The position numbers and the translations under genes are program-made. DNA of 63,731 nt, the filler included, from Hausera hauseri (lineage: Eukaryota), in the NCBI GenBank assembly GCA_046269625.1. It is 12 parts of 12 records of this genome, joined end to end, with 100 filler letters (N's around TTAATTAATTAA, not from the genome) between each part and the next. Parts side by side here need not be neighbours in the genome. Positions count along the whole stretch, not along the records: positions 32,632 to 38,246 come from JBJURY010220297.1; 11 more parts are not named here. The stretch is one strand, 5' to 3'. The notes below the pieces were generated by a model. It ran no database searches. It was not told where the DNA came from and worked only from the letters and a program-made list of their open reading frames with translations. Shown here piece by piece: positions 18,848 through 55,006 of this stretch (positions are counted from its first letter, which is position 1; every line of letters starts with the position of its first letter).

Positions 18848-21800
18848 TTAAACAGATCGGCTAAGGCCGTCAGCATTCAAATGTTCTTTTCCCGGCTTGT
18901 GAACTACCTGGAAATCATATGGCTGCAGTGCTAACGCCCAACGCATCAGACGGGGATTGGAGCTGGCGTTCGACCTTAACCATACCAATGGATTATGGTC
19001 CGTTACGATCGTGAATTTTTGTCCATCTAAATAGTGATGCAATTTTTTTACGGCGAAGATTATGCACGCGCACTCCTTTTCGGTGGTGGCGTACTTCCTC
19101 TCCGCGTCCGAAAATTTTTTACTTAAATAGACGATCGGGTGCTCCTCGTTTCTCTCGTTCGTCTGTGACAACACAACGCCCATCCCTGTATCTGATGAGT
19201 CGGTCTGCACTAAAAACTCACGCTTATAGTCAGGCGCATATAGGATCGGATCTTGCGTAAGCCTTTTTTTCAAAGTTTTAAAAGCCGCCTCGCATTCCTC
19301 AGTCCAGATAATCGAACCCTTCCTCATCTTCCCCCTTAAAGCAGTTGTTAAAGGAGCTGAGATAATAGAAAAGTTCGGGATATATTTACTGTAATAACCC
19401 GCGAGACCTAGAAAAGCGCGTATTTGCGTCTTTGACGTGGGAGTAGGGAAATCTATGATCGCCTGGATTTTTAACTCAGCGGGTTTGCGTGTTCCCTGCC
19501 CTACTATATGTCCAAGATACTTCACATGATCTTGAGCGAAGTGACACTTGGCCGGCTTGAGGGTTAATTTCGCCTTAGAGATACGCCCAAGTACGACATC
19601 TAAATGTTTGATGTGCGCTTCCCAACTATCAGAAAATACAGCTATATAATCAAGATAGGGAACCGCAAAGGATTCGCACTCCTTCAAAACTTCCGCCATA
19701 AGTCTGGAAAAGAAATATGGTGCGTTCTTCAAACCGAAAGGCATTTTTAAAGGACGGAAGGAACCAAACGTCGTAACAAATGCTGCTAGCCTTTGAGCCC
19801 TAGGACTTAATGGTATTTGCCAATACCCCTTTGCTAAATCGAAAATACTGATGTATTTCGCAGCAGATACCAGCTCGACTCTCTCTTCGATGTTCGGGAG
19901 CGGGTAATACTCGGTCCGAATGACGTCGTTTAGCCGACGGTAATCGATACACGGCCTCGGATCTTTAAATGGCGCCTCAACGAGTATCATAGGAGAAGTA
20001 TAATCGGATTCTCCAACCTCAATGATCCGCAAATCCAACATTCTTTTTATCTCCGCTCTCAATATCTCATTCTGCCGCTGTGAAGCGCGATAGGGTTTCG
20101 CTCGAACGGGCTTGTCGCTAATGAGCTCTATATCATGAGTGACTAAATCCGTTACACCGGGGTCGTTCGAAAAACTGTTAGAATACCTATCGAGTAAAGC
20201 CTTTAGCTCTCCTACCTGCTTCGGGTTTAGTCGCTCTATCAAACGGTCCTTCTCAACTATTGCCTCAAATTCATAAATGTTCGGGTTGGTTTCCAAGCAA
20301 GGGAAATCTACCTCACTGTTGGCAACCCCTTCCCAATCCTCATTGCAAGTTAAATAATTGACCATTTCAGGTCTTTTATAGTACGGTTTAAGCATGTTTA
20401 TATGATAGATCTGAGAGGCGTCTTCTCTCCCGGGTAATTTCACCACATAATTGGTATCCGATATTTTAGACTGCACTTCGCCTGGCCCTTTCCATTTCGC
20501 GGATAATTTATTACTCCTGGAGGTAGCGAATATCAGTACCAGGTCCCCTTCCCGGAATTCTCGTTTTACGGCATTTTTATCATACCATATTTTTCGGTGA
20601 ACCTGTACCTCTTCCATCCTCTCTACCGCCAACTCTTGACACCTTTTTAATCTATTGACCAATTTGAACACATAATCCGTGACTGGATCTTCTTCATCAC
20701 TAGACTCCATCCATCGCTCGTAGAGCAAAGTTTCTGGAGTTCTCAGGTTCTTCCCGTGCACAAGCTCGGCTGGCGAGAAACCTGTACTCACGTGTGTCAC
20801 AGTTCTCAGTGCTAAAAGTGCCAAAGGTAGCTGTTTTTCCCAATCCGGACCTGCTTCCACGCACAAAGCCCTCAGTAGTCTTTTTAAAGATCGGTGAAAT
20901 CGTTCCACTGGGTTCGTCTGTGGATGATGGACAGAACTGTGTCTAATCCGAATTCCGAATTTTTCAAAAAATTCCGTGGTGAGTGCGCTCGTGAAAGACT
21001 TGCCCTGATCGCACTGCACCTCCCTAGGGAACCCTAGCCGACTGAAAATATTTAATAACGCGTCTATCACCGACACGGACTTAATATCCTCAACCGGTAT
21101 AGCATCCGGATATTTGGATGACATACAAAGTGCCGTAATTATATATTTCTTCCCACTCGGGGTTTCGGGTAAGGGCCCGCATGCATCAATATTGACCTTT
21201 GTAAACACTTCGGATATTACCGGCACTAATTTTAGGGGCGCCTTCTTAAGGTCGTTGGACTTCCCCGCCCTCTGGCACTGATCACAGGTGCGGACGTACT
21301 CCTCGATTTCTTTATAGCATCCTGGCCAAAAGAAATAACGAGACAAGCGATCCTTCGACTTAGTGACCCCCAGATGCCCCGAAGTCCCCTCGTGACATAC
21401 TGCCTTTATCTGGTTCCTAAGTTTATCGGGTACCACTAACAATTTTTTGTCGTTCCCCAAACGGTCTTCCTGGTGTTTTACTAAAACGCCATTCTCAATT
21501 ATATACATCTTTTTCGTGAGTCGCTCCTGTGGGACACTAGCTAGGTCATAAATATTTTTTAATGAGGCACTTTCCTTCTGCATCTGAGAAAATTCAGACC
21601 TACTGATTTTGGGGAGTGATAATTCGTCGACTTCGGAAATTTCGGGTAAAATGATCTCTGGTGTCTCATCAGTACATTCAATATCTATTTCCCCTTCAGT
21701 GTTTTCCTCGTTTCCCACCAAACTATTTGCGCCCACATCTGCATCTCGCTCTTTTATTCCCCTCTGGGATCGCGTTTCTACTGCATTCATCATTACCGGG

Positions 21801-22126
21801 GTTTCCACTCCCCTTTCTGCCTGGCCATCCTTAATTCTCTCCGCTGTCCGATTACTTAAAATATATCGCCCAGTGTCCAGCTCATTTCCGACGACAGCTG
21901 CAAAAGTATCAACCTTCCCAAATTTTCCCGTTAACGAAACTCTAGCTATGGGTAAACATCTGGCTTCGGTGTCCAGTGGCTGTTGTATCCAAAGAGTCTC
22001 TCCGGTCAAATTATCTGAGGTGATATATTTTCTGCAGACCAGGTCAAAAGTCGCGCCCGTATCCCTTAGTAATGAGATGGGGTGTCCATTTACTGTTCCC
22101 TCCGATAAGAAAGGGGCTAAAAGTGC
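18848..22126 (-). CDS. pol: Pol polyprotein (PR-INT-RT-RH); RT YxDD reads YLDY
   Basis: The 1053-aa ORF-track ORF stays open upstream through the protease DTG motif to a TAG at 22127-22129. Confidence 0.9.
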   Translation of the reverse strand, partial: ALLAPFLSEGTVNGHPISLLRDTGATFDLVCRKYITSDNLTGETLWIQQPLDTEARCLPIARVSLTGKFGKVDTFAAVVGNELDTGRYILSNRTAERIKDGQAERGVETPVMMNAVETRSQRGIKERDADVGANSLVGNEENTEGEIDIECTDETPEIILPEISEVDELSLPKISRSEFSQMQKESASLKNIYDLASVPQERLTKKMYIIENGVLVKHQEDRLGNDKKLLVVPDKLRNQIKAVCHEGTSGHLGVTKSKDRLSRYFFWPGCYKEIEEYVRTCDQCQRAGKSNDLKKAPLKLVPVISEVFTKVNIDACGPLPETPSGKKYIITALCMSSKYPDAIPVEDIKSVSVIDALLNIFSRLGFPREVQCDQGKSFTSALTTEFFEKFGIRIRHSSVHHPQTNPVERFHRSLKRLLRALCVEAGPDWEKQLPLALLALRTVTHVSTGFSPAELVHGKNLRTPETLLYERWMESSDEEDPVTDYVFKLVNRLKRCQELAVERMEEVQVHRKIWYDKNAVKREFREGDLVLIFATSRSNKLSAKWKGPGEVQSKISDTNYVVKLPGREDASQIYHINMLKPYYKRPEMVNYLTCNEDWEGVANSEVDFPCLETNPNIYEFEAIVEKDRLIERLNPKQVGELKALLDRYSNSFSNDPGVTDLVTHDIELISDKPVRAKPYRASQRQNEILRAEIKRMLDLRIIEVGESDYTSPMILVEAPFKDPRPCIDYRRLNDVIRTEYYPLPNIEERVELVSAAKYISIFDLAKGYWQIPLSPRAQRLAAFVTTFGSFRPLKMPFGLKNAPYFFSRLMAEVLKECESFAVPYLDYIAVFSDSWEAHIKHLDVVLGRISKAKLTLKPAKCHFAQDHVKYLGHIVGQGTRKPAELKIQAIIDFPTPTSKTQIRAFLGLAGYYSKYIPNFSIISAPLTTALRGKMRKGSIIWTEECEAAFKTLKKRLTQDPILYAPDYKREFLVQTDSSDTGMGVVLSQTNERNEEHPIVYLSKKFSDAERKYATTEKECACIIFAVKKLHHYLDGQKFTIVTDHNPLVWLRSNASSNPRLMRWALALQPYDFQVVHKPGKEHLNADGLSRSV

Positions 22127-22400
22127 CTATTTTCCCCCTTTCCCCCAGATGTGGCTAACTTCCTCACTTTCTTTTCTCCGCCTGTATTTCTCACATTGAG
22201 GGCGAAAGTGCTCAGTGCTCCCACATTCGAAACATTTCAGCTTCTTCCTTTTTTCAAACTGTTCTTCCAAAGATTTATCTCTCGGGGAGAATTTGGGGTC
22301 ATTCTTCCCCCAGGCTTTATTTTCTGACTTGTTTCCTGCATCGTTTATGGGTTTGGAGCCCCCCTGCTTGTTTAAATATCTCCCTTTTAATGGTGAAAAT
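18848..22400 (-). mobile_element. Gmr1-type Ty3/Gypsy retrotransposon: gag CCHC-PR-INT-RT-RNaseH
   Basis: CFECGSTEHFRPQC (~22195-22236) and LRDTGA protease, then integrase HHCC and DDE core (IDACGP, DQGKSF, HPQTNPVERF, WKGPG) BEFORE RT (CIDYRRLN, DLAKGYWQ, MPFGLKNAP, YLDY) and RNase H (TDSS, TDHNPL, NADGLSR). Confidence 0.95.
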
Positions 22401-23305
22401 CCGGTGCCAGCGGTGGAGATTCGTCGTATAACGTCGTGAAGAGCTGGTGGAAAGACTGTTTCGTTGTCCTGATCAAGAAAAGATTGGATTCAACTCAGTG
22501 AAGGATTTGCATATCCTGGAGTACTTCCCGCAGATTAGTGTTTTGAAAGTGAAGAATCGGTTAGACTAGAATTGTTGGAGATACAAGTTTTCCAGATACG
22601 TCTCTCCAGTTCAGGACTATTTTCCAGTTATCCACGAATCTCCAGTTCTGTGATTAATAAAGGAACGTTCAACATTTCAGTTTGTTTTCTGTGATCTCCA
22701 GAAAAGGTGTTTTAGAGTTTTATTTTTCCAAAGTGACTAAAAAACTTTCGGACTTTTGAACTTTACCGTTTGAACTTTATTGTTTAAAGGACTTACTGAT
22801 TTCAAGTGATGAAAAGCATCAAAAGGGGTAAGTACCTTGAATTTACTTATGGTAGTAGCTCTATTATGAAATTTATATTCCAAATTCGAAAATTTTAAAT
22901 GCTATGTTCATAATAGTTTGGCATTCATATTAAAAAAATAAATAAATAAATACAGTGTTTGATCTTGTGTATATTTTCCATACGAAGGCAATGCTAATCT
23001 GTATTATATTTTGTAAGAACTAATGTGCGTTGAGTTTGATGTTTGAAAAAAATTGATATCACATTATTGCTGATAAAATTGTTTGCTTTTGAAAGAAATT
23101 GTTAATTTAAGTTGAATTTTGGATATAAGATTTGTATATTAATTGAGTAAGGTATTTGTAGAATTGCTTTAAAATATTAGTATAGAGTTACTTTTGAATG
23201 CTAGANNNNNNNNNNNNNNNNNNNNNNNNNNNNNNNNNNNNNNNNNNNNTTAATTAATTAANNNNNNNNNNNNNNNNNNNNNNNNNNNNNNNNNNNNNNN
23301 NNNNN

Positions 23306-24159: not shown

Positions 24160-27100
24160 TTCAATTTAATCTGCAACATATGTAATATGTCTGGTATGTT
24201 TATACTTGCGTAAAGTTCTGAGACAAAATAACAAGAACAACAAGAACAAGAACAAGAACAACAACAACAACAACAACCGGTAGGAAACGCCAGGCCTTAA
24301 CACGTCTTGACGACTTAACCAGAAACAGTACCTAGCAGCGGCAGCAGCATCAGCAGTAGCAGCAGGAACAGCATCAACAAGAAGAACAAAAGGCCTGTAT
24401 TCCCAACATTACAGTCAAGTACGACCTGAACAGATCGTACGTGAACATGAAAGTGGACATGTCGGCGAAAACAACAGTAACAACGCAATTGAAGGATGTA
24501 CCCGCTCATGTGCGTAACCGATTGGAAACAGAGGTGGCCAAATTCCAACAGTACCACTGTCACTACCACCACTGCAAAGTGCAATATTATGCACTTGCAG
24601 AATTTGAAAACGTTGAAGGTGACAGGAAACAGTGGGACCTGTCACATCGAGCCGTACCGTATTCCGACGAATTTATTGCCGACGTAGGCAAGATGCTCCA
24701 GGATAAAATCGCCAACTACACGAAAAAGGGTAGTGGATGGCGAATTATACGAATTGTCACTCTCGGCCTTATCGTAACGAAGTCGAGTGACAATATATTT
24801 GTCCGGGCGATCATTCATACCGATACCTGCAGCTCTGAAGCAGTCTCTGGCGGTAGTGAATGTAAAAAATACTAACGACGGATACTGTTTTCTTTACAGT
24901 ATTCTGTCCGTATTGAAATAAGACGAAGTGGACAGACATAGTGCATCTAGTCCAAAACAGTATCAGAAATATTTTTCCGAATTGGATTTCGATGAAAGCT
25001 TGATGCCGATAAAACTGAAATCCATTTGAACGGCGTAATCTGACAATGGCAATAAATGTGCTGCGGTACAACACAATCGTAGAAATACCGGCGGATAAAG
25101 AAATTTACAAAAACCCTCATGTGGATATAATCTACCGTAGTCGGAACCCAAATGGTTGCACAATAAATTTGTTGTTATTGGAGCAAAAGGAAAAATTCCA
25201 TTACGTTTCAATGACAAATCTGGACAGACTGTTAAATATGGATCACCGTCAGTTTGTCGAAAAGCGTATACAATGTAAATGGTGTCCTGTATGTCTGCAC
25301 GGATTCAAATCAGAGACAACATGGGAGAAACACGTGACTCTGTACAGACAAAATTCAAAGGGAACCACCATGTACGTAATGCCACTCAAAAGGGAGCTCC
25401 GATTCGGTGACTGGTCAAAAATGGATAGTCGGGCATACGTTGTATATGTCGATATCAAAGCTATCTTACCATGGCACAACATACATGACCAAAAACATGT
25501 TCTAATTGCCGTCGGTATGTTGTTTGCCCCAATAAAAGCCGCAGGTCAACAGCAATATTACGTTTTCATGGCTGAAACTGAGTACTCTATTTCCTGCATC
25601 AGTTGGAAACAATAGTAGAAACGAAAGTCGCACCCTGGTACAGTAGAAGTAGCAATAAACCCTTGATGTGATCAGATGAAGATGAACGCCTGACGTTTGC
25701 AATCACGGATTAATGTTATCTGTGCCACCACAAAATATTGCCGTTTGATGCGCAGGAACGGCTCGTAGCGGACCGTGATCATTTCACCAGTCGATATCTG
25801 GGAGCAGTATGCAACTCATGCAATTTGTCAAGGTGTGTGCGGCCATTCCTACCGGTGATATTTTATAACTTCCGGGATTATGATTGTCAGAATATTCTGA
25901 AATGAGCAATCAGTGGATTTCCACACTGGGAATTATCCGTAATTCCAACAACGATGGCGAAGTACTTGTCTCTATCGGCACGTATAAACTGGTTTCCAGT
26001 ACGGTTTCTTGACTCATTGCAGTTCATGAATGAGTCTCTAAAAAAGCTCGTAACTGCCTTGCCGGATGTGCCGATAACACTGACGCAGTTTCCTGCGCAT
26101 ATTGCACGCAGCAAAGGCATATTCCCGTATGACTTTGCTGTGTAATATGAGCGGCTTCAGACAACAGAGGAATTGCCGCCACAATAAACCGGAATCACAC
26201 AGGAGGAGTACCACAGAGTACAGGAAGTGTGGACTAATCTCGGCTGCAGAAACATTTTGGAGTATATGCTCCAGTACCTGAAACTGGACGTGCACTTGCT
26301 GTCCGACGTGTTTTAGGTATTTTGTGCTAAGGCGTTGGCGGAAGATAGGCTGGAGCCGCTTAATTTTTACTCCATACCGGTGATGAGTTGAGCATCGGCC
26401 CTAATGTCGCTGGACAGGGAAATTGAGCTACTGCAAGACCCGGAAATGTACCGACTATTTGATGTTGGTAATCTTGGCGACATGACGTTTGTTACCAAAT
26501 ATCACGTAACCAGTGATAATACTACGTCAGTGTTGTAAATCGATATTCGCAACCCTTTCCATACGGTTTATTTGAATGGGTTGTTGAAACACCGGAATTG
26601 GATGAATTAATGGACAGTTTTACAGCAGCAGCAGCAAACACGACAGAAAGCAGAGCAGTAAGCTACCTTATGGAAGTTTATCTCGTGGTACCAGATGAGC
26701 TTCATGACGCTTTGGACGAATTATCCGGGGCACCAATCAGATAATGTTTACCCGGCGGCTCAACAAAATTAAAATAACTGCTCAAGACTCATGAACCGAA
26801 GCTGAATTACATGGTTCATTGGCGTCTGCTGCAGTTTTACATGCAGTTGGGTGTACGTGTGACGCATCACACAGTTGCATCATGCAATCCGCTTCAATCA
26901 GGCCCAATATTCAAGGCGTACATGGATGGAAATTCTGGGAAACGATCCGCAGCGTGTACAAAGTTCGAAAAGGACTATTACAAGTTGAAAAATAATTTTC
27001 TTTACGGCAAAGCAGTAGAGAACCTCAAGAAGCGGCTCACTGTGCGCCTATGCAACAACGAAAAGCGGCTGGTTACGTACACCAGCAAGGTCCTGTTCAG

Positions 27101-27748
27101 GCGGTCAATGCACATTGCCGACGGATTAGTCGCAGTGCTTCTCAAGAGGGAAGAAGTAAAATTGGACCGGCCAAGCTACATCGGAAAAGTAGTACTGGAC
27201 CTGAAAAAGTTGCGCATGTACGGGCTCCAGTATCGCGACTTGGCACGTTATCGGCAAATGTTCGGCGACGGCTGTGAGATCAGTATCGTTGCCGGTGATA
27301 CAGACAGCTTTTTCTTTGAGCTAAAAAACGTCGATCGGAACCAGCTTCTCTGACAAATGATGGCAGATGGACTACTTGACACTTCCAACTACCAGTCGAA
27401 TCATCCGCTGTACAACAACGCGATAAAAAACAAAATCGTCTGCTTCAAGAACTAAAGCGAAGGCCGGGTCCAGTACAGGGAATGGATATTTCTACGCCCA
27501 AAATGCTACAGTCTTCTGACGGATTGTGGGCCGAAAATGCATGCAAAAGGCATCCAGGTGAAACAAACGGAACTATGTCACGGTGATTATCGCCGCGTCT
27601 ATGATGGACAAGAAGAATAAGGAACAGGAGGAAAGGTTGTTGTGTCTCAAACGACCATACGATCGATTGAGTACCAGCTATATAAAATCACAAATAGAAA
27701 GGTTGCTTTGTCATGCAACGATGACAAGCGAAAGTGGGTGGGGCAGAA
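24160..27748 (+). pseudogene. Degenerate protein-primed family B DNA polymerase of Polinton/Maverick (adintovirus-like) type
   Basis: Ordered motifs across frameshifts: KGSGW, CFLYSI, HYVSM, CPVCLHGF, DRDHFTSRYLGAVCNSCNL, FYNFRDYD, RFLDSLQFM, KGIFPYDF, YLKLDVHLLSDVF, KLKNNFLYGK, PSYIGKVVLDL, GDTDS, DTSNY, PKCYS, KGI. Confidence 0.92.
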
Positions 27749-27848: not shown

Positions 27849-30800
27849 ACGATAAAGGATAATTTGGAAGGAATATATGGAAAACAAGGTGATATAAGCA
27901 TGATTATCGAGATGCAGGATTTACAAAGGTATGTAAGAGATATTGGCTAATCTAATAACCCACAAGTAATTAAGGGCAGGAAGGAGTAGAAAGAAAAATT
28001 GCAGTAAATGGAAGTTTATCTTGGGTTAAGAGAACCAAAAACCGAGTACGAAAAGGCTATAGCGCTTAGGAATACTAACATGGCCAGAAAGAAAACCTGA
28101 ATCAAGCAGCGGAAAGCTGAATACGGCTTCAAGTGTAGATTTGGACGCAGAAACCGAGGTCAGGTTTCAAGATAAGGACAAAACGACAGATGAAGTTGAG
28201 AGTGAATTCATTAACCCACTAATACTCAAAATAACCAAAAATAGAGGCAAAAGTCCTTCACTTAGGAGAAGGTCAGGAACTTGTTTAAGATCCCCTATTA
28301 AAAAGGCTTTAGGAAAAGAAAAAGACTTCGTCATCAATTCAAGAGACAAGACGGAGTTAAATACTCCTGTTATAACCCAAGACCTTCTGGAAACAACAGA
28401 TATTTTAAATATCAATGAAATTAATGAAGTATATCCATTACCACCTAGTGAAGAGGAATCAGAAGAGGGAAAAATTGTTAAGTTTGGGAAGATTAGAAAA
28501 TCTTGGGAAAATGCAAACGAACTAACCAAAATAAGAGACATATTGAACGATCCTGAAAGGCTACAGGAGAACTTGCAAAAGCTTCAGCAAATGAGCAAAC
28601 AGTTGGATATGTCCGGAAAAGAACAACAATTTATAAAAAGCTATATAAAAAGCTTAAACCTGGCCCTCAGAAAGAGGAAGAAAACACAACTTACGAACTC
28701 CAAAAAACGCCGCAAAACTTGATAAAAAGTTGGCAAAACAAACTGGAACTGTGGACAAGGAGTGGGATTGATTTTACGAAAATATGGTGGAATATAAACG
28801 AACCGTTTCTCAATCAGGTTGATCAAGCCCAAAGACTATTAAACGAACTGAAAAACAACCCAAAACGGAAACGCGTTAGGCGTAATTTAGAAGGATTGAT
28901 AGGTGAGATCGAAGATGTGATAAATTCTTACATCCATAAAAAGCGAGTATATAAACTAACTGATGCCGACTTAGGGATATTGGGCATATCGACATTCCCA
29001 TTTTAATAGCAATGTGCAGCCTAATAAAGGATAGCCTTCGAAAACATCCAGATTTAAAAATACGTATCGAAAGAGAGAATAAAACACGAACCAAAATCAA
29101 TGACTTAAAAATTGGTGTAGCTGAGCTTGAAAACCCAGAGGCACAGCGAATAATACGTGCTTGTCTTCTCGAATTAGATGAGTATAAGGAAGAATTTAAC
29201 TATATGAAACATATCATAGAATTTGCTAGGGGATCAGATCACGAACTAAAAGAAGCTCTTGGGACATTAGACAAAATAATCTATGCTAAACCGGGAATAT
29301 CCAAACAACTAAAGAAGTGGATAGACTTGTTACCTCCCATAGCAGGGATAATAAACGAAAGACTAAGAGAAATAACTGTGGTTGAGCCTATAATTAGACA
29401 CCAATATGAGGGAATGTTACTAGATATCGTCACGATAGAAGATGAAGCTAAATTGCGAATTAAATTTGAATCATTCCGAGAACTTAAGTTTATGAGCAGG
29501 GAGCCAGATCAAACAATATTAACAGAGATATATAGTATGACAGAAGAAAAGGAATTTGATAGAAAAAGAAACAAGCTAAACGATCTTCAGCGAAGTTTAG
29601 CAAACATCCGTTGGGAAGGGATACAGAACCTAATGCAGAAAATCTCAGCACAGGAAATAGAAACATTAGAAGTAAGTAACGATCACCGGATTGCTCTGGC
29701 ACAAACACTACAATATTTGCAGAATCCAGCCGAGTGCACACCAGGTTTCGACCTACATTGCCATACCGAACTAATGGAAATTAAGAAGGATCTTTTGTTG
29801 ACGGGCGACAAAGGCAAGTTCACAGGCAGGCTAAGGACGAAATAAATCCGGACGATGAAATATTAAACCGAAAGTGATCCTACTGTTAACAGAAATGACA
29901 GAAATTGACGAAGTAGTAGCTAAACGACTAGCAAATCCAATACGTCTGGTAAAGGAAACCCGGTTACGCTCCGATAAAAGACAACTCAAGCTAGACGAAT
30001 TACTAAGAGAAACAGAAGTTTACAAGAACAAGTATTCCCTTACGGAATCTGAAATTAACGGCAAAATGGAATTTATACAGAGATGGCAAAGAGATAGAAT
30101 CGCAGAAATGGCAAGTTATCGGGAGAAAGCCCTGATACAACCAGAAGAAATGTGCCGATAAATAACATTGATACAACAAGCGTGCGGAAATGGAGACGGG
30201 TTTAGGGTATCCGTAATAAAAACATTGCAACCGCAGAGAAGAAAATTACGCGAAAGAGTCAAGGTCGGACATGCGGCACTAATAAACTACGATTTACCTG
30301 ACGCAGAGGATGAAACCGAGTGGGATGAGTATCTCCATGGTCTAAACGAACAAAACCAAAAAACTCCGATACAAATTTTTGAGTCACCTATTGGTAGCCA
30401 GAAGATAAAATTCGTCGTGCAAATGCTACTTGATCCCACAATAGCTGAAAAGGAACTGAGCAATGCGTTGAAAATAAACATAAATAAAGATAGGTTTAGG
30501 AAACTGATTCCAACTTTGACTAAGCCATTTAGTAAAAACACCGCATACAGCGCCGTGCCCAAACTTCTAATAAGAGAATATGCTAAATTGCTAAGAAATA
30601 AATTAGAAATAGAAGTCAAAGTGAAGATATCATCCGAACAGATGGATGACGAGGAAATTGAGTGCACTACCTATACCACTGGTGCCGATATAAGACAGCG
30701 GATAATGGATAACGATGATAGGAAAGGAATTAATTATCGGCTATATTTCACAGGTAGTATACTAGATGAGCTAGAATCCTTAATAGACGTAGGGATTATA

Positions 30801-31530
30801 CCCTTTGAGGAAAATCGAATAATAAAAATAATCTCCAGTGAGCAAACCAAAGACGAAGCCATGAGAAAGGCACATATAGAGCATTGCGTTGGAAGGATCA
30901 TGGGACTTCAGGATGCTGCAATGTACTTTGAATACTTACAGACTGATGAGGATAACCCTCAATACGATAAGAATTTAGTCCCACTAAGCGAAACCGCACC
31001 ACCGATGAAAGCGAAACGGCCGGTAGGAAGACCAAGAAAAATAAAATAAATCGACTATAATGCGCATCTGATTAGAGAATTGAGATAACTATCGGTACCT
31101 AACCCAAGTTCCGATAACGAAGAATTGATTGAACTAATGAGACATTTGATAAGGATAGTCAACTATACCGGACTCCAAGGCGACATATTATCCGAGAAGG
31201 AAAGACTAATATATAATATAGCACGGACAATGAAGGCTACACAATTTAAATTATCTAAAAGCACCCTGCCTGACGAAACATTAATCGATAGAATTATGAT
31301 GAATAATACGATGGAGGAACTAAGGAAAGTCTTGATATACTTAGCAGTAAGAACTAACTCCCTCGGGGAAAAAGAATTAAACTAGACAATTGGGTTAGCT
31401 AGAAAAGCTGCTAAAAGGGTACCTAAAAAATAAAATGGACTAAATTATTTGAAAAGGAGGACAATACAAGAAGGATCAATAACTTAGAGGACATAGTAAA
31501 AAATATCTCTCCGAACAAAGGGAGCAAATC
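27849..31530 (+). pseudogene. Decayed long A-rich, K/E-rich reading frame(s) of unknown function upstream of a viral-type glycoprotein; contains an AT-hook-like motif
   Basis: Six co-oriented, closely spaced ORFs. 29874-30161, 30168-31049 and 31125-31385 share one frame broken by isolated stops. KRPVGRPRK at ~31015-31040. Confidence 0.55.
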
Positions 31531-31534
31531 CAAC

Positions 31535-32531
31535 TGGTTAATCAACTTACCGACGATAATGATGCTAGTTAAGCAGATGGGAGTAGTCACTATATATGAC
31601 TGGAATAAATTCAAGGTGGATCAGAAATATTCCTTGATTGGCTTAGAAACATGTGAAGATGCGAGACCCCATAAGCTCTAGACAGTAGAGAAAAACTACA
31701 TACTATATAAACAACGTGAATGAATCTGAATGGATACAACGGAGTGTATGGTACGAAGATTTTGCAGCGTATTTTATTGTGGCAATTGCACGGCCATTTT
31801 TTGATAATTAAACCAACAACACCATTAATTTTGTTAAATGTAGGTAGACAACACTGTTTAGGAGCCCGGACAACCGATAAAATGGTCTGGAACGACATGG
31901 AATTGTAAGCCCAAGAAGGGAAAATAATTAGAGCCTACAAAGCGGCAATAGGAAAATTAAATATGCTCACCGGTTACTGCGTCGGAGCGGAATACAATAC
32001 GGGAAAAGTAATAGAAAGAGGAATATTAGTTGTAGATTTTTATGAAACCGAGTTAAGATCCTTAAAAGCGATGTTTAATAGTGTTACCAAATTATTCACC
32101 GAAAGTCAAAAATGTCAGATTCAAGACGGTGCTTGTATGCTCCGAAGTTCAGTCATTGTATGGAACCCACCTTCCAAGAGAGACTGCAATTTCATCAAGA
32201 TAAAAGAGTTAAAGTTTAATGAGACAACCGGAAAACGTTATACAAATAAATTACACACAAATACCAGATCAAGGGAATATGTTGTAGAACATCTCACACC
32301 AACGATATTGATATCGGATGCACACGGACTGAAGTTTATTAGAAAGGATATGTTAACACGCTGCGATGTAGTTGTGTATGCGACAAATTACGAAGCATTT
32401 TTCGTAGCAGAATCTGAAATCAACATAAAAACGTATGATTTAAAAACGCAAGATATACGGATTGAAGATTACCTCAAAATATAAGTAACTATTTTTATTA
32501 CAAAGGACAAACCGGAATAGCAGAACTATAC
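31535..32531 (+). pseudogene. Chuvirus-G-like (class III/gB-related) fusion glycoprotein N-terminal half, degenerate
   Basis: Hydrophobic leader, then IYDW...YSL...C (cf. AYDC..SL..C), FYCG, GxxxxxxGYCVGAEY, CQIQDGACxxxxSVIVWxxxxxxxC, CDVVVYATNYEAFFV. The cysteine pattern was recognised by eye. Confidence 0.65.
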
Positions 32532-32631: not shown

Positions 32632-33101
32632 TCGTCTTTAAGAGACGATGGAAATCTATATGACAATTTATAACAACGTATAATATTAACCTTCATTGAA
32701 TACACGATCACGTATGGAAATGAATAGAAGTCAATAGTATACAGAGCTGTAGGGCAATAGCAATTCGAACTAATTATAATGATATCAACGAAGTCTAGCT
32801 TGAACGACTCTAAGTCGGTTCACTTAAATGATACTGTAACAATGTCAATGTCCATTCTCTGATCAAGCCTGTTTATATGGTAGTATTTCTCGTCGTATGA
32901 CAAATTTTCTAAATTTATCTTGGCATTTTCTGATTTCACATCAAATTATTTACATTCAGATTACTTATCTAATATATACATGATTTCAATTTGCGCACAT
33001 CGATATTTGTAATATTTCTAAAATTAGTTAAATGACGAATTTATGTTTGAAATTCGATTTGTAATAAATCTAAATATATTCCGATGGCTGCCTCTGTTAC
33101 A
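32632..33101 (-). repeat. 3' LTR of the complex Gypsy element (starts TGTAACA at 33101)
   Basis: PPT agggagaaa (33110-33102) immediately precedes TGTAACA. A matching TGTTACA lies at 32841-32835 and TATAAA at 32877-32872. The distal end is uncertain. Confidence 0.65.
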
Positions 33102-33190
33102 TTTCTCCCTGAGCGGCATCCTCGAAGGAGACTATTGCGTCAGAAGAGGTGGCGCCCAACGGCCTAGGTTGTCTTAATCGATTTATTCTT

Positions 33191-33595
33191 TCAGACAGAT
33201 CTGTTGGTGAATTTCGTTGGTCTTGACTGGTTACTCGGGCTTGTGTCCAAATTGTAACTATGGTAAGGTTTGATCTGAACAATTCGTGTGTAACTCTCGT
33301 CGGAGTAGTTTTTCAATTCCGTGACCTCTGCCCGATACACCGGGCATGTTGTCTTCCCGTTGTCGAGTGTCCACTTTTCTAGGCAATCTCGACAGTATTT
33401 GTGGCAGAAATTTTTATTATCTAAAACTACATAGCCTTGCCTTAGGTTTGCATCACATACGGAACATTCGCTATCTTCCTTGTCCCAATTATCTCTATCC
33501 AAGTCAACTTGAATAATTAGTTCGATGGGTTTGAACACGAGACCATCTCCGTCTTGATACAGATATCCATGTATCACCTTTTGTTTGTGGTTCAT
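33191..33595 (-). CDS. RING-finger (C3HC4-like) protein within the LTR element
   Basis: CSVC-x16-CHKYCRDC-x12-CPVYR; the last Cys reads Tyr and the x-H spacing is slightly irregular. Confidence 0.75.
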   Translation of the reverse strand: MNHKQKVIHGYLYQDGDGLVFKPIELIIQVDLDRDNWDKEDSECSVCDANLRQGYVVLDNKNFCHKYCRDCLEKWTLDNGKTTCPVYRAEVTELKNYSDESYTRIVQIKPYHSYNLDTSPSNQSRPTKFTNRSV

Positions 33596-33997
33596 AGCGC
33601 TTTTCCGAGGGTCACAGTTTACTTGGATCTAGGTCCAATATGACATGAGATCTTTATCTAGGTCGGGAATCTTCCATTCTATTTTATATTTCTGGTATTG
33701 TTTCTTTAGCAATATTTGAATTTTTTGAACGGTTCTTTTTGAACGGAAGACTGATGTGAGGTAAGTTCCTAGCTTGGAATTCGCCCATGCGTAGATGTTC
33801 TCAAAGACTTCTCTTGATGGAGCAAGTTTGATGAAAAACGGCTTTTCTTATTATCTTTTTACTGTAATATTCGGTGGTTACCAGCATTGTGGGAAAATCT
33901 TGAGCTGTTCTGCAATGTACGTTTCCTTTTATTCTCTTTCCTATCAAGGCGTTAATTTCAGTTATTATGGGACTCTTAATTCCCCTTTTTAGCAATT

Positions 33998-35477
33998 CTA
34001 TTTTCTGTGAGGTACTTGGCCTGTTTTGTTGGTTCTCCACTTTTTTTCATCATCTTCTCTTTTCTTCTTGAATAGATAGTTATAAATAGATGATGTCTCC
34101 TTAGGTTGGGATTTCTCTTCTAATTTTGGTTTCTTAGTCGTTACTTTCAGTCTCGGTTCTCCTCTTTGTTTCTTTGGTGTAATGTTGCATTTATTTTTCG
34201 TTTGTAAGTCAGTTTTGTTTTCGTCTTGTTTTTCCATGGGTTCTTGTAGTGTAACCATAAGGCTGTGTGTACTTGTGAGCTGGATGGTTCTGGCTGGGAA
34301 ATAAGGCTTGATATTTTTTCTATATTCGGTTTTTATTGTTTTGGGTTTTAAAGAACTACACAGATTATACGTGGCATCTCTGGGAGCCCATTCATGTTCC
34401 CATTTTAAAGATTTGTAACTTTCTTGCAAATATTTGGAACGTTGGCTGGTTGTTAGAAGTCTTGAAATTCTGCTTGAATTACTATTCATTGATTCAATCA
34501 TCAACTTGAAGAAGGCTTCCGGTGTAATCGGCCTATTTCTTCCTTATACGGTATTTTCCATTCCTTTCTGGACCATCGGATGAGTAGCTATTTCCCTAAG
34601 TCCGGCAATATTTCCATCGGATATCCCTAATAGCTCGATTTCCCGTTTTACGTTGTATCCCGTTATCATGCACCCGTAAAGGCAGTAGTCTAACTCGGAA
34701 CGGACCTGTAGAATGTCTTTTCCGCTTATAAGTTGTTCTTTTCTTAACCAAGTTACTTCCGCATATGATTCTTGAACATGTTTACGGAGGTTTATAATGG
34801 TAGAGTAAAGCTCAGTTCCATCTGTTTCTCTGATAGATACTTTGATAGATATCCCATACTCATCGTCTCCTCTTCCACAATTTATCGCCATTATTCTTAT
34901 GTTACGACCAACCTGTACTTGCCCATGTGGTTGGTGGTGTTCGTCCTTCTCCGCTTCTGTTGGGGTTTGTTTGAATTCTAGTACTGGCAAGCCTAAGTTG
35001 CAGTTTTCTCTATGTATCACCTCAAACATGAGTTTAACAGGGAGGGTCGCTATTCTAAATTCTAGACCATGATTGATACTTTCTAGGCCTTATCCGCTTA
35101 TTTTGAATGTATTAAATCGGTATTGGCGGCCTTTATTACAGTTCCATCGTTGGTTCTCTATTCTATAGTATACTTCTCCGTCAGCTAGATAGATAAATAT
35201 ATCTTCCACTTGGGCGATCATATTCCGGATCAGTTCCTTAAGGCCGTACGATTTAGCTTGATTGTTTTCGCGCATCGCGTATAGGATAACTGTGCGGTTC
35301 TCTTCGGTGGCACCTTTCAAGTCATTTGGTATTTCGTTTACTTTCCGGTATTGGACGTACATTTCTGTTTGTTATGCGTCATTTATCCTTCTGTATATGG
35401 CTTTCGATTTGTGAATGAAGACTTGCATATTCTTGTAGGAATTCGTCTATTCTAATTCGGTTGATCATACTTACCAT
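33998..35477 (-). pseudogene. Accessory ORF with an ISG20/REX4-like DEDDh exonuclease fold, catalytic residues altered
   Basis: ORFs 35362-35090, 35029-34544 and 34504-33998 are one frame broken by single TAA codons. Motifs: IMAINC, KVSIRETDGTELYSTII, VTWLRKEQL...VRSELDYCLYGCMITGYNVKREIELLGI, REIATHP. Confidence 0.6.
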
Positions 35478-35507
35478 TCTGAAAGAAAATACAAAATAAG
35501 GGTTAGT
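35469..35507 (-). promoter_or_regulatory. Splice acceptor directly before an ATG, immediately followed by a consensus donor
   Basis: Minus strand: gACTAACccttattttgtattttctttCAG|AATG|GTAAGT. Confidence 0.7.
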
Positions 35508-35576
35508 CCTAAAACAAAGTACTGTTCTAAATCTGAACCAAGTCTTTGTTTGGTAAAATAACCCGATCTGTAGTTG

Positions 35577-36990
35577 TCAGGTTATTCCATCATTGATTTT
35601 TCTCTCTGGTACCATCACCTTTAAGTCTCTCTCGGTGATTTTAGGGCGTTCATTATAACAGTTTTTGGTAATCAATCGACAAAACACAATTAAAGTTATG
35701 AGAGCAAATATTGATGTTACCGTAATTAATATTACTGATAAAGTTGTTCCTTTAGTTAGTTTTTCAGTTCCAACGGTAGTCGAGATTTCGCTTTTCGTTT
35801 CGTCATCGGTCAGTGGTTTCATTAAGACGATCTGGTTTAAAGTTCGTACCGTAATGGTTTTCCTTTGTCTATTTTCTGCACTTATTTGTATAACGTAGTC
35901 TGTTTTATGTTTCAAGTAGATACATTTGATTCGACGACTGCCTTTAACCAATGTTACCTTCTAATTATTATGCACTGCTCGGCAGTTTATTTCTACATCA
36001 TAATTAAGTGCTTCTTGCACCACGAACGTTATTTCATGTTGTTGTGCCCAATATTTTATAGGAATTATTTCTAGCTCCTTTTGAGATAATCCACTCGTCG
36101 GAGTGATTCTGGTGGATATAGAAGTGGTAGTCTTTGCTTTTGTAATTCTACTCGTTATCCTGCGCGGAACTTGTCCGATTGTATTTTCCAATTGGTAACT
36201 TCCTAAATAAATACTTGACTTGTTCAGTCGAACTTCATAAAAGTCTAATTGAATCATATATTTGTCTTTCTGGGGTAAGTTGCACCATCTCTTCGGTCGT
36301 TCGACGTCAATTTGACAGTATTGTTGGTCCGGAGCTGCTTTGTTCTCTTTTATGAATTGAACTGTGATTACTCACCCCTTAATTAATCGCCCTTTTGTGT
36401 TTATTTGAACACAGTTTTCCTTCGGATTTCCCGTTATACTGGCTATATTTTCTTGTAGCATACGTTTTAATGGGTCGTTGGATTGGAGCATATCTTCCAG
36501 CTCTATCTAAAGGTAGTCTCCATAAGTCCGTGGTATAACTAAACGTAAATTCGGTTTTATTTCGGCGTGTACATAATTACAATTTGGCAAATGCGAACGA
36601 TAACTGAGAGCGTAAGTGTCCGTATTCTACGTTGCATCAACTAGTATCATCTTCTGGTTCGAAAGTACACTTGGACTCGGCTCGGTTTAGCCACTCCTGA
36701 AGTAGTATTTGAATTCGACTTTTATATGGTCGTAGTAACCTAAATCCGACACAGTGCTTCTGCCGAAAAATAATCTAATTCTATTGCTCGTAAAAACTTT
36801 TCGTCTTTTTTGCCCGATTTGTGACTGAAACTTTCTTCCTTTTGTGACAATGGTTTCAATCCTCTTTTCCTGATTCAATATACATCGTTCAACGAAGTTT
36901 CATCTACCCACCATTGGGCATTAGATTTGGGTGTTAAAACCGCAATCAATGATAATGCTACTATTATCTGTGCATAAGATACTGGTCTAG
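35577..36990 (-). pseudogene. Type I membrane protein in the env position (signal peptide, Cys-containing ectodomain, FN3-like domain, TM), degenerate
   Basis: QIIVALSLIAVLTPKSNA/QWW is in frame at the end of integrase. LKHKTDYVIQISAENRQRKTITVRT fits the FN3 LxxxTxYxIxVxAxN pattern. TM TLSVILITVTSIFALITLIVFC. Confidence 0.6.
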
Positions 36991-38246
36991 TGACAATCGA
37001 CGAGGTTTTATTTTCTCGCGGTCTTAGACTGTAGTGTTTAGTTGGTCTTATATCCGTTTTAACTACTCTTTGAATCGATACGACTTCCTCTTTTCCACTT
37101 TTGTTAACATAGACTGTAGTTGGCGCTGTGCGGGTGATTTCATAAGGTCCTTTCCCGGTACGTGTTAATTTAAGAGATGCACCTTTCTTCGCGACAGAGT
37201 AATGTATATAAACCCAATTTCCCTTTTCCAGATTATGAGGCTTAGCCTTTTTATCATATTGTTTTTTAAATTGTTCCTGATATTCAAGCAACTTCCCAAC
37301 ACCTTTGCAGTCTTGTCTGTAAGGCTTAGGCAAAGTTTTGCTCGAGATCCTCGAAGTTCTTTTCGTACGGTGTCATACCTAGATCTTCAGGTAAGATTGC
37401 TTCTTGTCCATACATCATAAAGAACGGTGTAAACCCTGTTGCGGGATGGGGTGTCGTATTGATGGCGAATTGTGTTCCTTCTAGGAATTCATCCCAATCT
37501 TTTTGGTATTTTGTCACTACTGTTGATAATATCCGAATAACTTTTGCGTTCATTCGCTCGACCACCCCATTACATTGGGTGATACGCGGTAGTAGTTAAA
37601 CGTTTGATTTCAAATATTTTGGTAATTTTTTCAAATAATTCGCTTATGAAGTTTCTTCCTCTGTCTGTTAAGATTTGTTCTGGTGGTCCGTATCTGCGGA
37701 TAATTTTTCTTACCACTGCGTCGGCTAAAGTTTCTGCTTTTTGATATAATAGTGCCATTAGTTCGACGAAGTTCGTTAGTTGGTCTACGCATGTCAGAAT
37801 GTATTTGTTATTTTTGTGAGTTTTGGGCAAGAGTCCTACTATATTCAGACATAGCTTGCATGGGCCTATCTGGTACGTTTATGGGTTTTAATTCTGCTAC
37901 GTAACCTTTCGTCTTCTTCTGTTTTGTTGCGAACACTTCGCATGCTCCTACCCAATTCCTTACATCAATATAAATACTTGACCAGTGATATTTATTTAAT
38001 ATCCTTTCCAATGTCTTCTTCCAAGACATGTGTCCGGCTAAATATGAATCGTGCTCAGCCATGAGTACTTCTATGCGCAATCCTTTTGGAATAACCATTA
38101 GTCTTCTTCCTTTCCACTCGTAGTATAGGATATTATCTTGGTTCGATGCGCGATATTTATGTTCGTGTTTCTGTAGATACTTTTTCAGTTGCCGTCCTTT
38201 TGGTATTTTGTTATTTTGTATAAACTCGATGATTTTCTGAATAACC
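36991..38246 (-). mobile_element. Ty3/Gypsy integrase (degenerate), same family as 59063-63731
   Basis: HDSYLAGHMSWKK...C, NNKYILTCVDQLT, ILTDRGRNF, TTAYHP, VERMN, NTTPHPATGFTPFFMMYG, GKGPYEI. Confidence 0.93.
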
Positions 38247-38346: not shown

Positions 38347-38676
38347 TTGTAGTTGCTCTTGTTGCAGTTGCTGTAGTTGTTTTAGTTGTAGTTGCTGTAG
38401 TTGTAGTTGTTGTAGTTGCAGTTTTTGTAGTTGTAGCTGTTGTAGTTGTAGTTGTTCTAGTTGTTGTAGTTGTAGTTGTTGTTGTTGTAGTTGTTGTTGT
38501 TGTAGTGGTTGTTGTTGTTGTTCTTGTAGTTGTTGTAGTTGTAGATGTTGTAGTATTAGTTGTTGTAGTTGTTATTGTTGTAGTTGTTGTTGTTGTATTT
38601 GTTATTATTGTAGTAGTATTTGTTGTGTTTGTAGTTGTTGTTGTTGTTGTTGTAGTTGTTGTGGTTGTTGTTGTAG

Positions 38677-38716
<40 letters not shown>

Positions 38717-38979
38717 AGTTGAAGTTGTTGTTGTTGTAGCAATTGTAGTTGTAGTGGTTGTAGTTGTAGTTGTTGTAGTTTTAGTTGTTGTAGTTGTATT
38801 TGTTGTATTTGTGGATGTTGTAGTCGTTGTTGTTGTAATTGCTTTTGTTGTAGTTGCTGTTGTTGTTGTTGTTGTTGTTGTATTAGTAGTAGTAGTTGTT
38901 GTTGTTGTTGTTTTTGTTGTAGTTGTTGTTGTAGTGGTTGTAGTTGTAGTTGTTGTAGTTGCTGTTGTTGTAGTTGTCG

Positions 38980-39019
<40 letters not shown>

Positions 39020-52181: not shown

Positions 52182-52699
52182 TTATGTTTGGAGAGGTAAC
52201 CTGAGAAATGATTGTTTCTAATATTTCACCAGCATCAGTTCAGATACATGCTGGAATCAATGAGACCAAAATATTAGGAGTCCATCTGGGTTTTCAGTAC
52301 TGCGGTTTTGTTGAAATTTTCTGTACACGGGATAAAATTTTGGCTATTAATACCTGGTAACAACCTTTTATTTTTGAAGCACACCAAGAGCCCCAGCTCA
52401 CATCCGAACCTCAACACTTTTTATTTATCTCCTTCCTCCGTCTACGCAATTAACGTTGCTTTTGTCTTGCCGTTTTCCGCCTCTTTCTTTATCATGTGTG
52501 GACGATCATCAGTGTTTCTTTGTAATTTTTACACTCCCATTTCCGACTTCCGTGCGTGGGTGTCCTTTGTAGTTGGCTTATTGATGTCTCTTTCTAGTGT
52601 TGCGGTTCTTCTCCTATGGCGTTTTCTAACTTTACGGTCTTTACGACAACACGCCCCTTCCTTAAATGAAACATGTTTTTTCTACTTCTGTAGAAAGAA

Positions 52700-53472
52700 A
52701 CTTCTTTAAACGATTCTGGTTCATCTGTGTTCTCGATTAAGTATTCGTTCTGTGTGCTTCATTCTCCATAATCCGCTCCTCCCTTAATGAAAAAGTATTT
52801 TTCATTTCCTTGCAGCTTTTTACAAGTCCAAAATCACTTCAGTTACTCGTAGAGGAAATGGAAAATCGTTTCCTTTCCAGGCTGAATTAATAGCTGTTTA
52901 GACCTTTTGAATGTTGGGACTTGGGTAAATGGTTACAATGTCTCGATATTCGACTCTCATTGCCTTGTTGAGGGTTACGGATTTTTGATAGTTGCTTCAT
53001 TGTTATCGTTATCTCTTTCTTTCTTAGCATGGTATCGCATGAATAATATATCTAGTAGTTCTCCTAGAAACTGAAGTATTGCTTATTTTCTTCTCCTCTT
53101 TATCAACCATTTCAAATGTGTCTTCGTGTCTTGAACTTCTTCTTGCCATAATCTTATTTCTCGTTCAGATTCCAACAGGATCATCTGAAAATGTGTCGCT
53201 GGTGTCGTTTTCTGACTTCTTTCTTTGTGGTATACTGATGTGTGAAGCCGTAATCTGGTATTCTTCAACTGGGTTTCGATATCTGATAACTGCCATTGAA
53301 AAGTCGTCAGTGATTGTATAATCACTAGTCGCCATCTAGCTTGTACTGTGTGTACCTCCTTGACTTTTAGAAATATTGTTCCTTGCGACTGAAAAAGATC
53401 TTGCTTGGTGTGTGTCATTCTGACCACTGTTATCCACTGATACCAGCACATCATTCGTTTGTCCGTGGACAA
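52700..53472 (-). pseudogene. Errantivirus/baculovirus-F-like (class I) envelope remnant
   Basis: GTIFLKVKEVHTVQARWRLVIIQSLTTFQWQLSDIETQL (F2-like start), then basic KRRRK* followed by fusion-peptide-like AILQFLGELLDILF at 53082-53041. Confidence 0.55.
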
Positions 53473-53492
53473 ACATGATATAGGTTATTCTT

Positions 53493-54747
53493 TTACGCTA
53501 ACCTTAGCATATTTTGCAATAGTAATTTCATAACCTTTTCTTCTTTTGTTTCATTTTGGGTTACTGCTTCTACTTCCTTTTGTTCAGTTGTACCCGGAAG
53601 TTGTGTTTCGCCTTCAACTTTATGTATTGCTATACTTTCTTTATGTCGGCCACTACTTTGATTGTCTTGATTCTGCCGTATGGTTATCTGATTCACTTCA
53701 GCATTAGGTTCTTTTCTCTTGATTACTTCAGTCATCTGTTTTCTCAACTTCGTAATCTTTGCTGTTTTCTCGGCATTGGCTTCTTCAAGCTTTGTGGTTT
53801 GGTGTTCCATTTCCCGCAGCATGGTTTCTGTTTCGTAAACCCTACTTTGCAATACCTTGGTTCGGTTCTCTGCTTCTTTTCTGGCTTCTATAATCTTGTC
53901 GAGACTGTCTCGGCTATTCTTTATTTCCTTATCTTTGTGTCGTGTTATTTCTTGTATTTCTGCCCTCTTGGCTTCTGGCTATTTTTTGTTTCTTTCTAAT
54001 TTCTTGTATCGGTGTTATAGTATTGCGTTTGTTTTTCTTGGCTGCACTAATGGGAATTCTCGATTCTTTTCTATAATTTCTGTTATCATTGTCGGTTCTG
54101 CGGTTGAATCTTCTGTGTATAATTTCCTGTCGAGTGGCTTTATATATTGGTGCATCCTCTGTGGAAGTTTCTGCATCTCTAGTTCGTTTGGTATGCTGGA
54201 GGATGTGTTCCATTTCGGATGTTGTAGTGTCTGAGTCGTTTTCAACTGCTGTGTTGGAAGAGTCATCTTTTGTGCTACTATCTTCGGGTAGTGCTACTTG
54301 TATTGCGTCCTTGTCTGCATCAGCTTCTTGCACTTCTCGAAGTTCTCTATCTCGTAATCTTCATTTCCTTTCAAATGTTGGTAGGTCGCTATCTTCTGAC
54401 GAGGTAACTAATAAATTCCAGCTTCTCTTCAGTTGTCTGGCTTTCGCTTCTTTAAATGTTCTCCTTGCTGCTGCTCTGGTATTCTGGTATGATGTCGTAG
54501 CTCCTGATTCAGTTCTGTGGTTGGGTCTTGTTGGAGTAGGATCTTTCGTGGGTGTCATTGACAAGGGTATTGGACCTATTGCATATCGGGTATCACTGTC
54601 AGAACTATCACCTGTTTCAGTACTCTTTCGGTTAAGAATAATATTTCTGTGTTTTGGTTCGTCTAAGGGGCAACCAGAAAAATGTGAACATTGTTGTTGG
54701 TAGATTTTTACGTAGGAAAAATACGCATGCGCTGTTAGAATAAACAT
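53493..54747 (-). pseudogene. Decayed A-rich low-complexity/coiled-coil ORF upstream of the env remnant
   Basis: 54747-54361 and 54333-53929 share a frame across one stop. Same strand and compositional bias as the retroelement contigs. Confidence 0.4.
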
Positions 54748-55006
54748 ACAACGTTAAGTATACGTGTGACAACGGATTGCCTGGAAGACAAAAATCAACT
54801 GTTTGACTTGACAAAATGGTAATGTCTCATGACAATTAGATCAGTTAGTATAGTTTGTACTTTCTAAAACATGTAGTATTTTCCTTATGAAATGTGAATA
54901 TAATAANNNNNNNNNNNNNNNNNNNNNNNNNNNNNNNNNNNNNNNNNNNNTTAATTAATTAANNNNNNNNNNNNNNNNNNNNNNNNNNNNNNNNNNNNNN
55001 NNNNNN

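Follow-up and report, generated by a model that had tools for sequence, protein, structure and literature searches.

The window analysed here is a stretch of 63,731 nucleotides from the assembly GCA_046269625.1 of Hausera hauseri. It consists of 12 short unrelated contigs with N44-TTAATTAATTAA-N44 spacers between them, and adjoining contigs are not genomic neighbours. Our subject occupies exactly one of these, a 5.6-kb contig (JBJURY010220297.1, positions 32632-38246) whose minus strand carries, in this order, a Ty3/Gypsy integrase, a gene for a predicted surface protein (gene A), a splice-acceptor-like site, a gene joining a nuclease-like fold to a RING finger (gene B), a polypurine tract and the start of a long terminal repeat (LTR). 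All features of the element described below lie on this strand. We are confident that the contig holds one broken copy of a Ty3/Gypsy element that exists in multiple copies and has two accessory genes 3' of its integrase, a confidence that covers the architecture; the steps of the mechanism proposed below are graded separately. Base composition is even from the integrase through the RING (A 0.37-0.41), and the proposed frames hold two internal stops in 457 codons (36 and 32 in the other frames) and one in 218 codons (13 and 13). Frame changes are found in the integrase, gene A and gene B, and internal stops in both genes, in agreement with a preliminary description of this DNA that had called the copy decayed.

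Membership in Ty3/Gypsy (Metaviridae) is indicated by a Gypsy-type DDE integrase with an HHCC zinc domain. The integrase (37001..38245) comprises an H2C2 zinc-binding domain (PF17921, E 5e-15), an rve core (PF00665, E 1e-11), whose sole PDB match is Ty3 Gag-Pol (E 8e-4), and a GPY-type C-terminal part. It is broken by three frame changes, and the contig begins inside pol, behind the reverse transcriptase. A sister element in the last contig of the window shares 68% nucleotide identity over 1233 nt of integrase (62349-63498) and shows reverse transcriptase, RNase H and then integrase, an order that fits Ty3/Gypsy. This sister (59063-63731, plus strand) is heavily decayed; protease, spacer, reverse transcriptase, RNase H as well as integrase can be followed along it, and a different sequence lies 3' of its integrase. 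In the C-terminal region of the integrase of our element, a second run of nine purines before TG (37190-37182) could be a central polypurine tract or a chance occurrence.

The 3' end of the element is equally typical of the group, with a polypurine tract immediately before an LTR that starts with TG. As the preliminary description had stated, the tract is followed by TGTAACA: nine purines (33102..33110), the joint-longest such run on the strand, lie directly 5' of this motif, which begins at 33101 and opens the 3' LTR (32632..33101). Within the LTR, TATAAA occurs at 32877 and the inverted motif TGTTACA at 32841-32835. The two motifs would bound an LTR of 267 bp, an end that is a candidate only. 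Related contigs run through TGTTACA, and differences are seen in 3-7 of them on either side of it, which suggests that the repeat continues and that the LTR may pass the end of the contig.

Gene A (35577..36994) would encode a type I membrane protein. It is in frame with the end of the integrase, its signal peptide starts about ten codons past that end with no visible junction, and no start codon is seen at the position of the start in its relative. In this copy the gene is spread over three frames (changes near 36775 and 36616) and interrupted by internal stops at 36877, 36639, 36509, 36374 and 35963. The query built from it (36899-35580 translated, with X at stops and the first 95 residues off-frame) had two matches among 1,835,955,588 representatives, both unnamed singletons from ENA: P0004 (479 aa, 34% identity, E 4e-39) and P0005 (189 aa, 46%). 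In P0004 the frame is open, and the N-terminus of the protein aligns with the signal-like stretch just 3' of the integrase. When it was used in turn as a tblastn query, gene A was recovered in three pieces (44%, 32% and 32% identity over residues 10-77, 81-133 and 132-479), and P0005 aligned at 45%. The layout that emerges is a signal peptide, a charged helix, three beta-sandwich domains homologous to one another and accompanied by a Thr/Ser spacer, a transmembrane helix and a short basic tail. The signal-peptide-like stretch (36917..36994) aligns to the N-terminus of P0004 (hydropathy there 1.38) and is followed in P0004 by a predicted long helix; the transmembrane helix (35679..35735) has a hydropathy of 2.82, compared with 2.26 in P0004 and 2.95 in P0005. 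P0004 further has four N-glycosylation sequons, paired cysteines and a single transmembrane helix, and its domains are detectable as internal repeats (D1-D2 E 6e-8, D2-D3 E 0.007).

What fold these three domains adopt is suggested by an AlphaFold model of P0004 (pLDDT 46, from 3 sequences), which contains three all-beta domains. When this low-confidence model was compared with 48,161 chains, 75 reached Z 5 and none Z 8; the top match was an immunoglobulin-like DUF3244 chain, many FN3 chains followed, and the matches to such chains lie at Z 5-7. Atlas neighbours of the gene A protein are FN3 membrane proteins (0.85-0.87, all below 0.9). Arthropods dominate the top Atlas cluster, which as a lead only, and together with the other contigs of the window, points to an invertebrate host. 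These weak matches to a predicted model make FN3-like a fair, unproven label. Thus, of the signal-peptide/FN3-like/transmembrane protein announced for this interval, the signal peptide and the membrane anchor are confirmed by the alignment to P0004 and by hydropathy, whereas the FN3 part is weakly supported. Gene A does have what identifies an envelope (env) gene of errantivirus type, a signal peptide and a C-terminal transmembrane anchor in a reading frame 3' of pol. The mark of an F-type envelope, a furin site with a hydrophobic fusion peptide after it, is lacking: the furin motif R-x-K/R-R is absent from P0004 and P0005, and no hydrophobic fusion peptide occurs in the ectodomain of either (hydropathy at most 0.83). 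A classical F-type envelope is therefore an unlikely identity for gene A. A Foldseek comparison of the P0004 model with viral structures gave only poor matches (query TM-scores below 0.2). What the model resembles are small beta-sandwiches, and the structural matches listed for it include no fusogen other than a 73-residue match to a domain of EFF-1 (Z 5.4), which neither supports nor excludes a fusogenic function.

Gene B (33097..35477) corresponds to one long open reading frame (ORF) in its intact relative, P0006, an ENA protein of 870 aa. This protein was the only match among 149 candidates when the RING piece was searched among longer proteins (E 9e-50), and it spans both broken pieces of the gene (40% identity over 405 residues, 43% over 230 residues). 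By tblastn, its residues 64-466 align to 35434-34241 (40%, E 1e-85) and residues 619-842 to 33847-33179 (43%, E 5e-50). Since a single frame in P0006 covers the nuclease-like and the RING pieces, the DEDDh-like ORF and the RING ORF proposed in the preliminary description are both present, but as pieces of one gene rather than as separate ORFs. The multi-gene cassette it had placed between integrase and LTR does comprise several accessory parts, but, with nuclease fold and RING fused, the gene count is two. In our copy gene B is split over several frames, and internal stops interrupt it at 35374, 35092, 34546, 33631 and 33193. The order in P0006 is an unassigned domain of about 185 residues, a DEDDh-like domain, a basic linker, a second unassigned and conserved domain of about 120 residues, the RING and a tail. 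The linker is poorly conserved and of low complexity, with KKRR/KKKR clusters. P0006 ends in ...QGGEML and our copy in ...QGEM-stop, its last frame crossing the polypurine tract and the LTR start; from this mirrored tail, P0006 appears to end at the same junction of polypurine tract and LTR.

The nuclease-like domain (34380..34900) escapes detection in our copy taken alone (0 of 3127 candidates, no PDB match, no Pfam match) and is detected via the intact relative. Residues 246-331 of P0006 match DnaQ (8h18, E 8e-4) and the PolC exonuclease (2p1j, E 3e-3), the protein matches the phage polymerase exonuclease family phrog_192 (E 1e-4), and its Atlas neighbours are RNase_T clusters (0.87-0.89). 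These are weak hints, but three sequence-based routes concordantly point to a DnaQ/DEDDh fold; an AlphaFold model of P0006 has a pLDDT of 30. The residues by which a DEDDh nuclease is known, the Asp and Glu of motif I and the Asp of motif II, are not in place. Aligned to DnaQ, P0006 and our copy both have AxN in place of the DxE of motif I, the motif II acid is conserved in neither, and the alignment ends before the His/Asp of motif III. Because both motif I acids are missing in both homologues, the domain is probably catalytically dead and the product of gene B a pseudo-nuclease. The C3HC4 RING finger (33335..33466) has all eight ligands in P0006 (PF00097, 30.8 bits against a cut-off of 21) and is one ligand short in our copy, where PF13639 matches at the cut-off (E 4e-6). 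From its C3HC4 pattern, it is likely to be a candidate E3 ubiquitin ligase.

Between the two genes lies the consensus splice acceptor that had been noted before, and as a sequence it stands out. Branch motif, pyrimidine tract and CAG (35479..35506), with 35478 as the first exon base, form the best-scoring of the 395 AG sites on the strand; the score was equalled in 4 of 300 Markov shuffles, an optimistic figure since the criteria were chosen after the site had been seen. One base 3' of the acceptor is an ATG, close to where Met55 of P0006 falls; residues 1-54 of that protein resemble upstream sequence that has been read in. Four bases past the acceptor, at 35474, a donor-like GTAAGT starts, which may denote a micro-exon or a competing site. 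Only two donor-like GTRAGY sites occur on the element strand, this one and another at 36375, inside gene A.

The accessory region is not peculiar to this copy. Only three relatives were found (P0004, P0005 and P0006), and they are intact at 31-46% identity, which implies that genes A and B have been kept under selection over a long divergence. P0005 (gene A) and P0006 (gene B) each derive from one ENA contig of 16,242 nt, most simply the same one; the contig of P0004 has 4,939 nt. With the gene A profile, P0004 alone came up among 4270 candidates and P0005 did not, so that this search was insensitive; scans of viral and metagenome contigs returned no relatives, with alignments too divergent to serve as seeds for such scans. 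In a public run (X1), which may be from the source organism and is then not independent of the window, 8405 contigs map on the stretch and cover 30 of its 30 bins. Most are 80-95% alike to it (361, 1247, 3197 and 3600 contigs at 99% or more, 95-99%, 90-95% and below 90% identity, respectively), and transitions far exceed transversions. One diverged contig of 746 nt joins 35573-35423 to 35211-35100, that is, the gap after gene A, the acceptor and gene B. As judged from these sequences, the cassette is a real pair of genes of a Gypsy lineage kept under selection. Of the earlier interpretation, an accessory region that belongs to the element and combines surface, nucleic-acid-binding-like and RING parts is upheld, and this region has been conserved for long. 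A codon-position test, applied to the differences in 40 of 1549 rows, was dropped for its outcome and for these few rows (positions 1-2 in 16 of 20 differences, p 0.15; 11 of 14 once a cluster is set aside).

Extra ORFs that lie after pol and before the 3' LTR are already known, and the preliminary description, in holding that Ty3/Gypsy elements usually have nothing or a single env there, understated what has been reported: the DEDDy, GDSL or transmembrane ORF3 of rotifer elements and CERV of Cer1 are precedents. It had also not recognised the combination from described families, and our searches of open-access PMC and bioRxiv turned up no description of it, neither of a DEDDh-RING fusion nor of an FN3 membrane protein 3' of a Gypsy integrase. 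The proteins themselves and their pairing appear new. The comparisons that follow apply to the available portions of the articles cited. The Juno and Vesta LTR retrotransposons of bdelloid rotifers are likewise Gypsy-type and carry a non-env ORF behind pol, including DEDD-family exonucleases, GDSL proteins and small transmembrane proteins (PMC5408684). Their DEDDy ORF3 is RNase D-like with intact catalytic residues, whereas the gene B domain resembles the DnaQ/RNase_T type with these residues lost, is predicted to be dead, and is fused to a RING and paired with a 480-aa surface protein; the words 'RING' and 'fibronectin' do not occur in the rotifer text (PMC5408684). CERV of the C. elegans element Cer1 is a big spliced ORF placed after pol and before the 3' LTR, multi-domain and nuclear, with a pseudo-enzyme domain and a Cys-rich zinc site, and is needed for export of the genomic RNA (PMC10309623). 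It would be the best functional analogue of protein B. Unlike protein B, CERV has H, M and pseudo-GTPase domains and exons in common with gag; it has no nuclease fold ('exonuclease' occurs 0 times in the available text) (PMC10309623). Homology is not expected.

Gene A finds a positional parallel in the env-carrying Ty3/gypsy errantiviruses, which have a glycoprotein running from signal peptide to transmembrane anchor just behind pol (PMC13524379). Their envelopes are of F type or HSV gB type, whereas gene A lacks furin site and fusion peptide, and the available main text uses 'exonuclease', 'RING', 'fibronectin' and 'accessory' 0 times (PMC13524379). The MDG1-group sORF2 is another non-env transmembrane accessory protein and has been proposed to act in cell-to-cell passage, but it is a FAST-like protein of about 70 aa encoded upstream of gag, whereas the product of gene A has 480 aa, three folded domains and a place behind pol (PMC11952523). 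A RING-type zinc finger also occurs in the giant planarian Gypsy elements Burro/GYPSM1, whose ubiquitination and apoptosis domains are thought to target the host (PMC6431247). Unlike the RING of gene B, these domains reside in a huge ORF1 polyprotein of an element of more than 30 kb, and neither a DEDDh-RING protein nor an FN3 membrane protein is described behind the integrase in the part of the article at hand (PMC6431247). PML isoform 1, a host protein of restriction type to which the gene B searches returned no match, offers an analogy only. PML has a RING too, placed first within a TRIM scaffold. Its isoform 1 is described as a pseudo-exonuclease that binds nucleic acid (PMC13659232).

How might the two proteins serve the element? 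It is possible that splicing to the acceptor at 35478 produces a subgenomic RNA from which protein B is made, and that the basic clusters of this protein carry it into the nucleus. The dead nuclease fold would bind the RNA of the element or its DNA copy, a proposal prompted by other pseudo-exonucleases that bind nucleic acid. The RING would recruit an E2 and ubiquitinate host factors that retain or silence the element RNA; genomic RNA could then be exported unspliced and survive, and protein B would play a part comparable to that of Cer1's CERV or of Rev. The chain would amount to a regulatory layer resembling those of complex retroviruses. We give these four steps an even chance of being right. 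Protein A, in turn, may act at the cell surface by adhesion or receptor contact and aid passage from cell to cell without being a classical fusogen, which we propose more tentatively. Taken as a whole, an element with two accessory genes, an RNA-tethered RING protein and a spliced RNA is the best explanation we can offer, and we would neither bet on it nor against it. The widest form of this idea is rather doubtful: that the element represents an undescribed complex metavirus lineage whose env position is taken by a non-fusogenic triple-FN3 surface protein, a third class next to F and gB, and whose spliced pseudo-nuclease-RING is a ubiquitin ligase guided by RNA, which frees the RNA of the element from host factors of silencing or retention, a Rev/Vif-like layer that arose independently of retroviruses.

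Several observations weigh against the main explanation. No copy was seen with paired LTRs, a target site duplication or gag and reverse transcriptase, and none of the X1 contigs spans the whole stretch. The sister element has no gene A match in the roughly 230 bases that remain 3' of its integrase, and some X1 contigs diverge from the element near the start of gene A. Together these suggest that the cassette marks only part of a wider family, and so related integrases would travel with other 3' regions. Diverged copies in X1 do cover the whole cassette. The FN3 label draws on a model of pLDDT 46, Z values below 8 and Atlas scores below 0.9, and Pfam fn3 has no match in protein A. Similarly, Pfam, RNase_T included, returns no nuclease match in P0006, the DnaQ matches are weak (E 1e-4 to 4e-3) with Atlas scores below 0.9, and the prediction of a dead nuclease comes from two sequences, aligned only over motifs I and II. 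The real function could also lie in the parts without a recognised fold, which make up about half of protein B. Finally, 41 contigs carry another base at the first position of the branch motif.

Among other explanations, the one that fares best, though we think it unlikely, is that protein B counteracts the host's RNA sensing or small-RNA silencing in general and is not tied to the RNA of its own element. It might sequester or trim double-stranded or small RNA, or degrade a sensor. The exonuclease domain of the arenavirus nucleoprotein is among the Atlas neighbours of P0006 (0.87, a score to be taken as a lead only), and viruses are well known to employ RING ligases for the removal of restriction factors. 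However, the function of the arenavirus exonuclease requires catalysis, and the motif I acids are missing in gene B. A link to silencing has also been discussed for the DEDD ORF3 of the rotifers in the available part of that article (PMC5408684).

Less probable still is that protein A represents a new class of true envelope, capable of receptor binding and fusion, and that the element is an infectious, errantivirus-like provirus. Gene A lies exactly in the env position; its product has the signal peptide, four sequons, cysteine pairs, transmembrane anchor and predicted long helix after the signal peptide that such a protein might have, and its ectodomain seems to vary faster than its transmembrane end, a weak indication (loose ends at 35708). 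Set beside this is the missing furin and fusion peptide signature. We regard it as improbable, too, that protein B has 3'-5' exonuclease activity by way of a rearranged active site and trims the ends of element RNA or cDNA. The gene B domain does resemble DnaQ-type exonucleases in fold, both homologues have acidic residues a few positions past motif I, with a His following close to where motif III would be expected, and a trimming role was proposed for the rotifer DEDDy ORF3 in the portion available (PMC5408684), but the motif I D/E is A/N in both homologues and the motif II acid is not conserved. That the cassette is passenger DNA, captured host pieces or a nested element lying beside a Gypsy integrase by chance is very improbable: no full-length copy was seen, the sister has no match 3' of its integrase and FN3 and RING are frequent among host domains, but the 1.84 billion representatives contain no host homologue of gene A (both matches being family members), the intact relatives, 31-46% identical, share the apparent order and the ending at the polypurine tract junction, strand composition is uniform across the cassette and the signal peptide follows the integrase so closely without a junction.

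To our knowledge, Gypsy accessory proteins with a known role are few: env, sORF2 and CERV. The element described here adds two new long-conserved proteins, whose intact natural representatives are open to direct assay. A pseudo-nuclease-RING borne by a retrotransposon would be a candidate for an element-encoded counter-defence or RNA-export factor, and any target that protein B ubiquitinates would reveal a host restriction factor. Surveys that use env as bait would miss a surface protein of neither F nor gB type at the env position, and such a protein would widen the known routes of these elements between cells.

Other contigs of the window carry features of their own. An A-rich strand at 27849-32531 (plus) has several broken ORFs without an assigned family and a Cys-containing piece at 31684-32481, which has no match in Pfam, PHROGs or PDB; we take this piece to resemble chuvirus/gB-type glycoproteins, possibly from another complex retroelement. 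An open pol of 1092 aa at 18851-22489 (minus) lies behind a gag zinc knuckle and has its integrase before reverse transcriptase and RNase H, presumably a Gmr1-like order. Broken pieces with a GDTDS motif at 24360-27350 (plus) have no Pfam match and seem to us to come from a family B DNA polymerase, protein-primed and of Maverick/adintovirus type. A ribonucleotide reductase large-subunit piece at 48261-49148 (plus; PF02867, E 1e-87) shares its contig with a short ORF at 46659-47006 (minus), which we assume to resemble a packaging ATPase, so that the contig is possibly an endogenous DNA-virus fragment. At 50886-54906 (minus), an A-rich strand without a Pfam match holds coiled-coil and low-complexity ORF pieces with the look of a large gag-like ORF1. 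Degenerate tandem repeats at 8871-14243 and 38347-45638 (15-base-type; GTT/GTA-rich) yield long spurious ORFs, and an uninterrupted coiled-coil ORF of 2062 aa at 3-6188 (plus) is probably one very large host exon.

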